From NCBI GenBank assembly GCA_951406725.2, contig OX597817.1:123318001-123382000 (forward strand): DNA of 64,000 nucleotides, read 5' to 3'. Under the pieces are notes generated by a model. The model ran no database searches, was not told the DNA's origin, and worked only from the letters and a program-made list of their open reading frames with translations. The position numbers and the translations under genes are program-made. Source of the stretch: Octopus vulgaris. Its lineage: Eukaryota. Shown here piece after piece: positions 8,601 through 51,316 of the stretch (the first letter of the stretch is position 1; each line of letters opens with the position of its first letter).

Positions 8601-8765
8601 ATATATATATATATATATAGTTAAGTAATTGAGATTCTAGTGAATTCTAAAGAATTCACATGAATATGGTCCTTAACTAGGATGCACCGGATATCTATAT
8701 GGTGTTAGCCATACGACAAGTGGGGTGATTATAAATAGGAAAAAAGCAACAAGAATGGATTAAAA

Positions 8766-8853
8766 TCTCGGTACGATCGTTTCGTACGAGGACATATTTA
8801 ATAAGCTACAAAAAATGCAGTGAATACAGATGGCTCGTACTCGTCAGCCGAAA
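8766..8853 (-). ncRNA. Type I hammerhead ribozyme, minimal/dimeric PLE type
   Basis: Minus strand reads tttcgg-CTGACGA-gtacgag-(loop)-ctcgtac-GAAAC-gatc-GTA-ccgaga. Core is intact, with 7-bp stem II, 6-bp stem I and palindromic stem III. Confidence 0.88.
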
Positions 8854-9096
8854 AAATATCAGAGAATTCCCAAACATCAAAAGGGGTAGATATAAAAGAG
8901 GTTGTAGGATTAGCTGCATTGAAGAAAGTTCGATTCATGGAGATCTGATGAAAGGTTTTAAACCTATAGAATTTATGCATTCTATAGGTTTAAAACCTTT
9001 CATCAGATCTCCATGAATCGAACTTCTTCAATGCAGCTAATCCTACAACCTCTTTTATATCTACCCCTTTTGATGTTTGGGAATTCTCTGATATTT

Positions 9097-9183
9097 TTTC
9101 GGCTGACGAGTACGAGCCATCTGTATTCACTGCATTTTCGTAGCTTATTAAAGATGTCCTCGTACGAAACGATCGTACCGAGA
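9097..9183 (+). ncRNA. Type I hammerhead ribozyme, minimal/dimeric PLE type
   Basis: CTGACGA 9103-9109; stem II gtacgag 9110-9116 / ctcgtac 9159-9165; GAAAC 9166-9170; GTA triplet 9175-9177; stem I tttcgg/ccgaga. Confidence 0.9.
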
Positions 9184-9224
9184 TTTTAATCCATTCTTGT
9201 TGCTTTTTTCCTATTTATATATAT

Positions 9225-9390
9225 ATATATAAGTACATTAAAAGGCTTCCAGAAGAAGAAGTGAGTACTAGATACACAAACGTTGGATAAATTTAGTGAA
9301 ATGAAAATTAAAAAAATTAAAAACTTATCCAACTTTTGTGTATCTAGTACTCACTTCTTCTTCTGGAAGCCTTTTAATGTACTTATATAT
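9225..9390. repeat. Inverted repeat with 66-bp arms and 34-bp spacer
   Basis: 9225-9290 and 9325-9390 are reverse complements with one mismatch. Confidence 0.95.
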
Positions 9391-46387: not shown

Positions 46388-46456
46388 CGGTGAACCTAGA
46401 TTTCAATTTTTTAGCAAATAAAATAATTTGCTAGGCGAAATTCTCATCAGTGACCG
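46388..46456 (-). ncRNA. Degenerate type I hammerhead ribozyme
   Basis: Minus strand reads cggtca-CTGATGA-gaattt..tagcaaat/atttgcta..aaatt-GAAA-tctaggt-tcaccg. Core boxes are intact; single-base lesions affect stem II and the cleavage site. Confidence 0.55.
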
Positions 46457-46736
46457 CACCATAACACTAACATATAATTAAGAGACAAATAACACGTGTC
46501 ATCGTTATACATTATTATATATATATACATATATACACATACACACACATACATACATATATGTGTGTGTGTATATATAATCCTACAGCACAAGGAGTAT
46601 TGTACTCCTATTTCAAGCGATGTAAGTGTCTCGGCACTCTTGGTCACATATAGTGACGATTGAAGTTATCATTATGGCATTATATTGCGGCTCTCACTGA
46701 CGAAGCATACGGAAATACATACGTTGTTGTAATATA

Positions 46737-47212
46737 CGAGGAGTCAAATATTATCCACACTTTCGCCATAACATATCTTCATTACTGCCACATTACATTC
46801 TTCGCTTGCGTGCTTACAGTTGACATTATTGTGGTCATGCGATCGATGTTTGAGCTTGATCGCGCTATTTTTCATTTCGGCTTTACAGAGTAAGCTTGGC
46901 CGCTCCACTAACAATGTGCGCCAAAGAACAAAGAACAGTGATCATATTAACAGTGCAAGATACAGCGCTTTGCTTGCCAGCAATCTGAAGCCAGCAATTC
47001 GCATCAAACGCCGAAGCATATTGCCAAAGGATGTCTTGTTGTTGCATGGCAATGCAGGCCTACACACAGCCGCCCAGACCGTTGAAAGCATCAACTATTT
47101 ACATTTCCAAGTGCTTGAACGCTCCTTTCGACTATCATATCTCTGTGTCGCTCAAGGATTGATTACGAGGTCGTCGATTTCCTGCGGATGAAGATATGAA
47201 GGAAGCGGTGCA
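46737..47212 (+). mobile_element. Internally deleted mariner relic
   Basis: TA-cgagg start; ORF has INSARYSALL..LKPAIRIKRR..VLLLHGNAGLH (HDNA motif); truncated by (TG)n. Confidence 0.8.
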
Positions 47213-47891
47213 TATGTGTGTGTTTGTGTGTGTGTGTGTGTGTGTGTGTGTGTGTGTGTGTGTGTGTGTGTGTGTGTGTGTGTGTTTGTGCATGATAAAA
47301 CAACACTGGAATTTTTTTTTATAATACGAAATATAATTGAATATGAAATTATATAAATAAATACGTACACTGATTTCTTTTATGTTTTCTTTTGAAATTT
47401 GTGCTTATAAAAATATCTTGCCACAAACCATGACTAAAACCAACAATTAAAAGCCTGCAAAAGTTTTACTTAAAGTACTTGGCAAGCATTTAAATTTACC
47501 TCAAATTTCATTTTGTACTGCTCAATGAATGAAGACCTCATTAATGCATTACATCAGTAATACATATTGACATCTCGGTCACAGCTCGAACACTTTTTAA
47601 ATAGAGGTTTTCGTGTTACAACTTGTATATTTAATACATCTAACATGTAAGTCATATTTTTAAATTTCTATTTTACATAGCTTTCAGTTTGCAAGTTCGT
47701 CGCTTGCTATGAGGTTTTGCACGACAAAATGCTGTATTTTTAGCTATTTTTGTTATCGATATTTACAAATAATTAAACTTACGAAGGATACACACAAAAT
47801 ACACGTACACACTCACCTAGCCATACAAACATAAATATATATATATATACATACATACATACATGTATGCAAACACACTCACACACATATA

Positions 47892-48760
47892 CAGAGGGTG
47901 TTTGGGAGAAATTTGGTAATTTTTAGCTTTCCCTTTTTACAAGAACATTTCAATGCATGGGTTAACAGGCAACGAAGGGGATAATGATTAACGTTGTTGA
48001 GAAAAAGCTGACATAGAGGAATGGAATCCATCTGACAATTGGAAAAGAGTTATCTGTACCATGAGAATTCGATCCGATTATCAAAATACTAATGACTGTA
48101 GCCCAATGCTCTGTTAACAGTGTTAAAGGCTGCAAGGTGTGACATGGTCAGCTGCAAAAGAGACTACGAAAACATATGCAGCAGGAAGTTACACAGCCAG
48201 CGTTGTGACTGCGTCTGCGCATAAGAGTTCAACTTCAAAACTCTGAACAGTGTATTAGGCTCAGTTCAGATGATTATGTGAAGCTGTAGGGACTGTGTTC
48301 TATCCCAGGCTGGAAGGCTTTGCCGGTGGAAGCCAGTATGTGTTGCAGCAGGATTAGGCTTCTTGCCACACATCCGGGAAAGTCAGAAGTAGTTGTCGGA
48401 AAATATATACAACTTCACAAGCACCAATTTCTGGCTTCTTAATCACACCGATTGTAAGTCCTTGGATTAGTATGTGTGGGGCTCAGTTAAGAAAGATAAC
48501 AGTCTCTCTGCCTACAACACCAAGGCCGAACTAGTGGTAAATATCAAGGTGTTCGAAGATCTTTTCAGGGACACAGTGAGGAATGCGTACACCAGGTTCC
48601 AGCTTCCGGGTTCTAGAGCCGTCTTGAGGTCGAAGTGAAAGCTAAGGACAGCTACTTTGAATAAACTTATCTCCCATTCATAATCTAGTTGATATGTTTT
48701 TAATTTTTAAAAATGCTTTAAATTTTGGATGAGATGTAGTTTTCGTTCCTGTTTTGAGCA
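47892..48760 (+). mobile_element. Decayed Tc1/mariner-superfamily element
   Basis: TA-cagagggtg start; QQD*A..HT and FWLLNHTDCKSLD*YVWG motifs; related to 27740-28415. Confidence 0.75.
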
Positions 48761-51316
48761 CCAAAGTCAAAGGCTATTACCGTGTTGAATTAATTATGTA
48801 AATTATAACAATTCTTTACAATAACAAATAAAACATGTTTAATAAGTCCTTTTCTACGCTCTGAGTTTAAATCTCATTCGGATCAACTTTACTTTTCATT
48901 CATTCGGCTCAATAAATAAAATACCACCTCGGGATGATATGTTGACAGAAGTGTTAGTGCGTTTGACATCTGGAACCTGTTTCAGCTTTTTGAATCAGAG
49001 TTCAAACTTCCTCTAGAATTTTATATTCTTCTGCTTGTTCACAAGTCCACAATTGATCACAAAAACGGGTGAGTGGAAGGGTTTTGTGACAATCTGCAAC
49101 TGCAGTGAGGTCGAAAGACGACGACGACGATGACGATGATGATGATTATTGTGCTAGTGGCATTGAGAAAGCAGATGAGAAAGCGAGGGTGGGTTGTACG
49201 AAAGAAAATGAAAACCAAAAACTAAAAACCAGAATACTGTAAAAACAAGCGTTTATTCATGATCAATTCTTCAATCTTATTCATCTATTAAGCATTTGAA
49301 AGTAAACAATATAAATGTATGTAGTGGTAAATATCTTGATAATGTTTTATTCTGAATCTAATGCATTTATTTATTCATCCATTCGTTAATCAATTTTAAT
49401 CACTGGCACGCAAATGAAATTTCATTAAATTCCCTTACAAATATGATATTCAATATTGCTTTATTCCTTGTTTTGGAATAAACAAAGAAGTGTATGCAAT
49501 CTATCAAAATTATTTTTATCATAGAAATCCCTTCCTTGCTACTGTCCGACATTAAATCACAAATTAATTACTCTTATCATCTGGCGTGTCAGCCTTGCAG
49601 TATGTATATACTGGCACAGCAAGATGTCTCAGAACTAAACTTCCATTATCAGACTTAGAGCGCCAAATGCTGTGGCTTTTATTGGCATCTTGATTTATAG
49701 TTTGGCATCCAGCGGTTTGTGACCAGAATATCCGCACATATACACAAAGGTTCTTTGGTTTATGAAGCGATAGCTTTATGAGGAAGTCATACTGATAATA
49801 CAGCACTTCTGACCACCATATGTTAGTTAAGGTATAGTTTTCAATCCATCTTTGTTATTAATAGTATAAATAATATGCGCCATTCACTTCAATTACATAA
49901 GATAAGACAGGAATGACATCAAAGTATTTTCTAGGATCACAAAATATTTACTGATTCAAGCTGAATACTACATAAAATTCAATATATTTCATGTACTTTC
50001 ATCTATAGTTAAGTACAATAAATATCAATCAAGTTAATTAAACATGATAGAAGCATTACTTATCCTACATAGATTTTACTGTTCATTAGTAGTTATTTTT
50101 TTTATAGTAACATGCATAATATATATGTATTACTTCTAAAGTAGCAAAGTCGAAGCGGTAGAACACTAACTTAAATAGCTTATAGCATATGGTATTGGTT
50201 TACACAGTTCTTAGTTCAATTCTGGTATGGTTCGAATTTCCATTTCCCCTCACCAAAAATCATTAAACGTAGAAGTTTTAATATACCCAGAAAATTCTCT
50301 TACGCCCCAAATCAAAAGGGATCAATATTGGATTTGCACTTCAGAAAAGGGATTTTCTTTGATGTTATTTCAAATCTCTAATGTAGCTATTTCATATCGT
50401 GTAAGCTGTTAATATTTCTTTGAAAGTGCATGACAATTACAATTTATATTTTCCCTATACCCCCATTATATGAAGCCTTTGTTTCTATTCAAAATGAATC
50501 TGAAATAAGAGAAGTAGAAGAAATAACAAAAAAAAAAGCCTTGATAAGTTTTGTTATTCATTGGTTTCGGTCGTATACATGATAATGGCTAGCGTGCTAG
50601 AGAAATCTGACTCAGAAAAGAACCCCTAAAATCTTAAAAGCAAAATGTTATAGAAAGTCGCAACAAGTTGAGGTGTCCAATCTTTTCACCGTAGGCTTTC
50701 TTCCAAAGATAACCGGTACCTCCTGTCAAACGTTGGTTTCATATGCCACATGAAATGAGAGTAATCTTTAAATTCATAATGGATCAAAGAATATTCTACC
50801 GTTTTAACAGAAACAACACTTCTTTAATATGTAGAAAAATTTGTCGGTGAAACACTGTTTGAAACGGAGAGTGACAGTGCATTACACCTTTATCCATAGG
50901 TAAGCTACATAACCATTGTAGAAATTTTGAACCTTATCTGTCACATATGTTTGGAGACTCATCTCAAAGCAGAGTGGCGTCAGGGAGATTATCGAAATGA
51001 TGTAGATTAATTGAAACAGATATTATCTCTCAAGATGAAGTGATCATCATCGCACGCGCGCAAACACACACTCACATACAAACAAGCACACACACAAACA
51101 TGCACACATATACACACACAATTATACATACATATGTGTGTATATATACATATATATATATATATATATATATATATATATGCACGTCACTAAAGTGATT
51201 GAGTGTGCTAGTTAGCACCAGTATTGCTATAAATGAGAGTCAAGATATCTCATACACACGATAAGCACTATCTTAATGACTGACAAGAAAGGCAACCTCC
51301 CTCAGCACCGACTATC

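Follow-up and report, generated by a model that had tools for sequence, protein, structure and literature searches.

A shared word at hammerhead-bearing repeat ends in Octopus vulgaris, a candidate start signal for Penelope-like reverse transcription

This article deals with a group of repeat ends in a 64,000-nucleotide stretch of the Octopus vulgaris genome (contig OX597817.1, positions 123,318,001 to 123,382,000 of the forward strand), here called the window, to which all coordinates below refer. An earlier note on this DNA, the original prediction, had proposed that four elements with a hammerhead ribozyme motif, E1 to E4, finish on nearly the same short word, CAAYYACTT; two additional elements found within the window are labelled E5 and E6. 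The window is AT-rich (28-40% GC) with dense (TA)n and (CA)n tracts, and it also holds mariner remnants, what is left of a non-long terminal repeat (non-LTR) reverse transcriptase, and a short repeat that is abundant. Our sequence evidence is the window itself and, for the E1 family, contigs from four sequencing runs.

A word shared by repeat ends that do not align

The word reads AAGTRRTTG on the plus strand and was found at all four of the predicted positions (terminal motifs of E1 to E4, Table 1). Counted from the predicted cleavage site it lies 140, ~218, 193, and 119 nt downstream in E1 to E4, in keeping with the 115-220 bp first proposed, and in three elements it stands, as claimed, within about 12 bp of (TA)n, the gap being 3 nt in E1, ~1 nt in E3, and 11 nt in E4. 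Outside the motif, no alignment was found between the four elements; the sole alignment of that kind is a marginal one between E3 and E5 (p 0.015).

It is the position of the word that matters here, as its placement at element ends lifts the sharing well beyond chance. The motif is present at 3 of the 29 (TA)n tract edges that are not microsatellite; in the last 30 nt of the remaining 26 edges, seven of nine bases were common to only 4 of 2600 triples and to none of 3000 sampled quadruples. An extended 15-base pattern has three matches where 0.14 are expected, a number reached in none of 100 shuffles. Please note that this pattern was derived from its own three matches, of which only E6 was absent from the earlier note.

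E2 supplies a boundary of a different type. A mariner-like reading frame stops at 23771, the 3' edge of the E2 motif, and no continuation of the mariner was found on the other side. The word thus stands at boundaries set independently of it, by (TA)n in E1, E3, and E4 and by the cut mariner frame in E2. We consider the terminal motif very probably real.

Hammerheads, hairpins, and the two ends of E1

A minus-strand hammerhead had been assigned to all four elements. Those of E1 and E3 are sound, but those of E2 and E4 are degenerate. By their predicted pairing, E1, E3, and E5 carry type I hammerhead motifs: a strict type I descriptor picks up both arms of E1 as well as E3, and a looser one adds E5 (28554-28665). 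The Rfam family RF00163 (Hammerhead_1) matches E1 only, at 21.6 bits and an E-value of 0.006, which is below the gathering score, and gives no hammerhead match for E3 or E4. When the entire window was scanned with Rfam, 150 of the 235 matches were listed; no hammerhead was among these, and they represent microsatellite or hairpin noise. The loop II inserts at 8766-8853, 28554-28665, and 29729-29809 are unusually long (~40-85 nt), so that Rfam and standard descriptors miss or under-score these hammerheads.

E2 is the older inverted pair, its arms forming a 75% inverted repeat over 23998-24265. The minus-strand hammerhead is one core base short, and the inverted arm on the plus strand holds the better copy. 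Despite the palindrome between them, the E2 hammerhead and motif likely belong to one element. At 38955-39065, 45967-46049, and 23908-23975 there are fold-back palindromes of 70-110 bp in which no hammerhead can be recognised.

The E5 copy stops ~35 nt past its cleavage site at a microsatellite, with tail and motif absent. It has its loop III palindrome in common with E1, and among E1-family copies that palindrome is retained by paired changes at 8775 and 8778, which occur at near-equal depth in three of the four runs (X1, X5, and X16). A dimer-type palindromic loop III is a described feature of the hammerheads of Penelope-like elements (PLEs) (PMC4209133). E6 lacks both a strong hairpin and an adjacent (TA)n tract, and only a doubtful hammerhead remnant lies upstream of it (~16826-16875). 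All five primary hammerhead-bearing ends, together with E6, are on the minus strand (8623-51363), an orientation that may reflect chance or an orientation bias inside a host transcript.

The three inverted repeats beside the motifs lie where they had been placed (hairpins, Table 1), and two of them are strong hairpins. When loops shorter than 3 nt are disallowed, stems reach 8 bp in E1, 9 bp in E3, 5 bp in E4, and 4 bp in E6, with none in E2. At 3000 random positions, a stem of at least 5 bp occurs in 10.7% and one of at least 8 bp in 0.37%; the E4 stem is therefore within chance, and the chance of two stems of at least 8 bp among four elements is ~1e-4. "Conserved structure with free sequence," as the original prediction put it, therefore convincingly describes only E1 and E3, and even the E1 and E3 stems share GAATT/AATTC.

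Folding gives a comparable picture. The E1 tail has a z-score of -4.96 against shuffles (none of 200 as stable) and the E3 end one of about -2.2; the E4 region has -0.74, and E2, E4, and E6 fold no better than shuffles. The E1 hairpin is nested within a longer stem, 8672-8679 pairing with 8618-8625 to close it. A long closing stem common to all elements was considered and rejected, being significant in E1 only. No variant at ≥10% was listed over 8633-8670 in the four runs.

The original prediction overlooked that E1 has two different ends, with a tail on one arm. E1 is an inverted pair whose arms are 97.5% alike over 8734-9215. Its right arm stops 38 nt past the cleavage site, where a U-rich stretch joins (TA)n through a shared TATA, whereas the left arm continues for ~110 nt more and then reaches the hairpin, the motif, and (TA)n. 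The short end recurs, as in run X5 a stretch of TA stands immediately ahead of 8730 in six contigs. The family is high-copy (616 contigs in X1 and 446 in X5, both DNA runs; contig depths are not taken as copy numbers), and other copies extend past the window copy at 8956 and 8980. From two runs that are presumably RNA came 2 and 37 contigs, which are not used as evidence of expression.

Several neighbours deserve mention. Right behind the short end of E1, a near-perfect fold-back (9226-9389) has TA on either side; it ends in TACTT and then TA, a weak likeness to the motif (6/9). E1 itself is inserted in the (TA)n tract ending one copy of an abundant family resembling short interspersed nuclear elements (SINE-like), with copies at 8369-8599, 26569-26799, 12329-12488, 3333-3527, 32455-32680, and 35069-35277. 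In addition, two decayed non-LTR retrotransposon 3' halves, 80-84% alike and on opposite strands (18671-19950 and 39822-41493), show RVT_1 and weak zinc-knuckle matches; we take both to be R4/Dong-like.

Table 1. Features of elements E1 to E6 in the window
Feature	Positions	Strand	Remarks
E1 left arm	8618..8975	-	truncated end of hammerhead-bearing repeat, including tail; from arm alignment
E1 tail	8618..8729	-	~110 nt, left arm only, two stem-loops; from fold
E1 terminal motif	8623..8631	-	3 nt from (TA)n
E1 hairpin	8640..8659	-	8 bp, 4-nt loop
E1 proximal (short) end	8730..8733	-	TATA where inverted arm meets (TA)n
E1 type I hammerhead motif	8766..8853	-	long loop II, palindromic loop III; descriptor and Rfam
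E1 inverted arm	8976..9218	+	second hammerhead 9097-9183; tail-less, ending in (TA)n
E6 fifth motif	16600..16614	-	14/15 bases identical to E1 end
E2 terminal motif	23770..23778	-	at mariner-like remnant junction; hairpin and (TA)n absent
Palindrome between E2 hammerhead and motif	23908..23975		68 bp; tail part or nested insertion
E2 decayed inverted pair	23997..24272		broken hammerhead (-) ~23997-24045; better copy (+) 24219-24268
E5 further hammerhead	28549..28670	-	loop II ~85 nt
E3 hammerhead and downstream region up to motif	29525..29812	-	microsatellite on both sides
E3 terminal motif	29531..29539	-	beside (TA)n
E3 hairpin	29543..29566	-	9 bp, 6-nt loop
E3 type I hammerhead motif	29729..29809	-	long loop II, palindromic loop III; strict descriptor
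E4 terminal motif	51193..51201	-	11 nt from (TA)n
E4 short hairpin	51205..51218	-	5 bp, 4-nt loop; within chance
E4 hammerhead core	51316..51363	-	with stems I and III; stem II pairs poorly; missed by strict descriptor and Rfam

Likeness to Penelope-like retrotransposons

The architecture of these elements points to truncated terminal-repeat copies from several Penelope-like retrotransposon families, and we regard a Penelope-like origin as likely. Endonuclease-bearing PLEs encode a telomerase-like reverse transcriptase with a GIY-YIG endonuclease. They are described as leaving a pLTR, an inverted, 5'-truncated copy, a one-sided tail, and a hammerhead in the terminal repeat, with (TA)n as target (PMC8557442, PMC3846280); a preference for (TA)n is of the Neptune, Naiad, and Hydra type. 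E1 and E2 look much the same in being inverted pairs round a hammerhead, and E1 has a tail on one arm, though one of ~110 nt. A further likeness is that the copies sit in (TA)n with no target duplication that can be read. The two different ends of E1 fit this known insertion pattern. An adjacent inverted copy is present in E1 and E2 and was not seen for E3 or E4; a TA-containing microsatellite lies at or near E1 (both ends), E3, E4, and E5, but not E2 or E6.

The hammerheads also resemble those of metazoan PLEs (PMC4209133) in being type I, with a 6-7 bp stem II and a short stem I, in having a palindromic helix III/loop 3 suited to dimers, and in occurring in many single or opposite-strand copies. 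They differ in the very long loop II of E1, E3, and E5 (~40-85 nt). The Naiad clade, which has no canonical hammerhead and an N-terminal endonuclease, does not fit, complete hammerheads being present here. By eye, the ends do not match published cephalopod Naiad ends or Hydra-1_Obim, and the motif is absent from the five cephalopod Naiad 3' ends compared in the available part of the PMC8557442 supplement.

The Hydra clade is characterised by a short canonical hammerhead and by protein motifs of its own. In all three Hydra consensi with long 3' ends in that supplement, a hammerhead is followed by a U-rich stretch and a TATA-like stretch, behind which come GCTC, a hairpin whose sequence is free, and a word of the GAGCACT type; a fourth consensus carries the GCTC-hairpin-GAGCACT-type pattern at its 5' start (PMC8557442, by eye). 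This supports clade-specific tail words, although the word differs from CAAYYACTT. The layout is the same as that of our elements, but in neither loop II nor tail word do these agree with the six published consensi available to us (by eye). The terms hairpin, stem-loop, and palindrome do not occur in the main text of PMC8557442. PLE families have been annotated in Octopus vulgaris, with no mention of a hammerhead in the accessible text (PMC13282606).

The biochemical comparison is with Poseidon of Anolis carolinensis (PAc). [quoted passage not shown] Our elements share with PAc an AC-rich stem-loop region ~100-200 nt past the hammerhead as the place where genomic copies stop, a choice of two ends that are separated by a tail, and AT-rich targets. 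By our count, the printed PAc template contains CAACAC at positions 111-118 (PMC11167929), which resembles the motif by eye only. Unlike in PAc, hammerhead and tail are free of overlapping reading frames here. Moreover, PAc is one element studied, whereas our word is common to families that cannot be aligned.

What the motif may do

We propose that the motif and the stem-loop preceding it mark the distal site at which the element's reverse transcriptase starts copying RNA, and we hold this to be evenly balanced between right and wrong. Going by PMC11167929 and PMC8557442, we infer that the protein would attach to the RNA past the hammerhead and nick DNA at (TA)n, priming then taking place at either of two sites inside the RNA. 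The proximal site would lie behind the U-rich stretch ending in TATA, as in the tail-less arm of E1, in E5, and probably in the right arm of E2; the distal site, just behind the hairpin and CAAYYACUU, would give the ends that carry a tail. The template would pair with the nicked TA primer through its final bases, AACUAU in E1 and E6, and contact with the protein would constrain the motif and keep it alike across diverged families.

The original prediction had offered a cis signal for reverse-transcriptase recognition, 3'-end formation, or target priming. A signal for the element end is still the best reading, since the motif stays 0-11 nt from the boundary while its distance from the ribozyme varies by ~100 nt, and so behaves as a signal and not a ruler. 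Of the roles named, a reverse-transcriptase start is favoured and fits PAc biochemistry; 3'-end formation is less likely, because the genomic ends of PAc reflect internal starts on unprocessed RNA.

Motif and hairpin might instead act as DNA: the GIY-YIG endonuclease would recognise the tail of its element, and the long end would be set when an intermediate is cut, not by a reverse-transcriptase start. Recognition by the Drosophila virilis endonuclease depended on the tail (cited in PMC11167929), the tail has been ascribed to endonuclease-mediated resolution (PMC8557442), and GAATT/AATTC in the E1 and E3 stems would suit a palindromic DNA site. However, later in vitro mapping places both tail edges at reverse-transcriptase starts (PMC11167929), and in single-stranded form the E1 tail, whose stems are bulged, folds much more stably than shuffles do. 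We consider this alternative unlikely.

Equally unlikely, in our judgment, is that these are separate short non-autonomous hammerhead retroelements, retrozyme- or SINE-like, that all exploit a single Penelope-like enzyme by means of one signal. Animal retrozymes have been reported as non-autonomous PLE derivatives, and non-LTR retrozymes are tandem arrays of monomers arranged head to tail, every monomer having a type I hammerhead (bioRxiv 10.64898/2026.07.22.740005); our elements are likewise short, non-coding, supplied with type I hammerheads, and linked to PLE terminal repeats. Coding sequence is not attached to them, the families do not align, and E3 consists of hammerhead and tail only, beginning ~4 nt before the core. 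Yet the tandem monomers that define non-LTR retrozymes are absent, no direct repeat of any element being found within the window. E1-family copies, moreover, run past 8956 and 8980, as expected of longer elements truncated at the 5' end.

The word could also be kept for some other job in the leader, such as an intron branch point, an initiator-like site, or a translation signal, with ends falling nearby only because the start site is fixed in the leader. E1 and E6 do end in TTAAC, which we take to be branch-point-like. This sequence is not present in E3 or E4, and the ends follow the motif (0-11 nt), not a fixed distance from the ribozyme (119 to 218 nt). PLE terminal repeats do copy the 5' region and hold promoter- or intron-related motifs (PMC3846280, PMC4209133). 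Even so, we think this explanation improbable.

It is important to set out what weighs against a start signal. Across the window, the 9-mer has seven matches against 3.66 ± 1.8 expected, with at least seven in 8 of 100 shuffles, so the motif by itself is not enriched; one-mismatch variants are at chance level (12 vs 11). Three of these matches were absent from the earlier note (16606, 26991, and 48387), and those at 26991 and 48387 were dismissed as chance, with upstream hammerhead, hairpin, and TA edge all lacking. When four regions of matched lengths were drawn at random, 23 of 300 sets shared somewhere a word with seven of nine invariant bases. The motif was chosen after the fact and is seen in a single copy per family, as the run contigs did not cover it. 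The hairpin is missing in E2, not strong in E6, and at chance level in E4, with no common fold. The E1 tail of 110 nt far exceeds the 30-40 bp published for PLEs, PAc included. Finally, a Pfam search of all 235 non-microsatellite frames of at least 55 aa found no reverse transcriptase or GIY-YIG domain attached to any element (the matches were to mariner/DDE, plus one RVT_1 far from the elements), so that Penelope-like membership rests on architecture.

Searches beyond the window add to these points. In metagenomes, none of the 120 matches listed to the motif with (TA)n (from at least 119 loci; 109 of the matches have at least 300 nt upstream) had a hammerhead upstream. The detector used recovers four of the six hammerhead copies of E1 to E5, and in most matches listed the motif runs straight into the TA tract; with such a detector and such matches, all that follows from the result is that the word is no universal marker. 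At one metagenome locus (L123:3806-3999) the motif occurs twice, inverted, beside TA tracts and with no hammerhead, which looks like the terminal inverted repeats of a small DNA element. Viral contigs gave 67 matches to the motif with (TA)n and three loose core-like words, none convincing, and the E1 hammerhead words were found in neither genome contigs nor viral contigs.

The published consensi also speak against the proposal. Among the Naiad, Chlamys, and Hydra consensi in the available PMC8557442 supplement, there are 11 matches, and the 9 of these that were listed all lie elsewhere than at a hammerhead-bearing end, one of them ~140 nt short of where a Chlamys consensus ends. Neptune, Nematis, and Poseidon ends are few or missing in these sets, which makes them a weak outside test. 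The motif had no match in the PMC3846280 supplement or in eight supplement files of PMC9115989.

The weakest alternative, together with a leader function, is coincidence, a short AT-rich word picked post hoc from four fragments: the window-wide count, the random sets, the two degenerate hammerheads of four, and the want of outside support speak for it, but the end-restricted controls, the independent E2 boundary, the fifth copy at 14/15 bases, and the two long hairpins make it improbable.

A possible start code for a class of reverse transcriptases

A bolder version of the start-signal proposal is one that we offer only tentatively and think rather less likely than the proposal itself. Here, the hairpin and CAAYYACUU(AA) would be a clade-wide start code of Penelope-like reverse transcriptases and the first sequence-defined template-start signal of the class, retained by families with nothing else in common and accompanied by a 110-nt structured tail. 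Clades would have words of their own (e.g., the Hydra GCTC-hairpin-GAGCACT), and the code might be borrowed by non-coding hammerhead elements. What is known is an internal reverse-transcriptase start from one lizard element; we found no published account of a cross-family tail motif or end signal, in a search that did not cover subscription papers or Repbase notes.

Penelope-like reverse transcriptases are the closest relatives of telomerase, and the choice of an internal start on RNA has been mapped for one element only. Should the motif fail genome-wide, the window holds ordinary truncated Penelope-like ends. If the proposal is true, the shared word names the bases to mutate in an existing in vitro assay. 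It would also help to set element boundaries in (TA)n-rich genomes, and might allow non-coding fragments to be assigned to clades.

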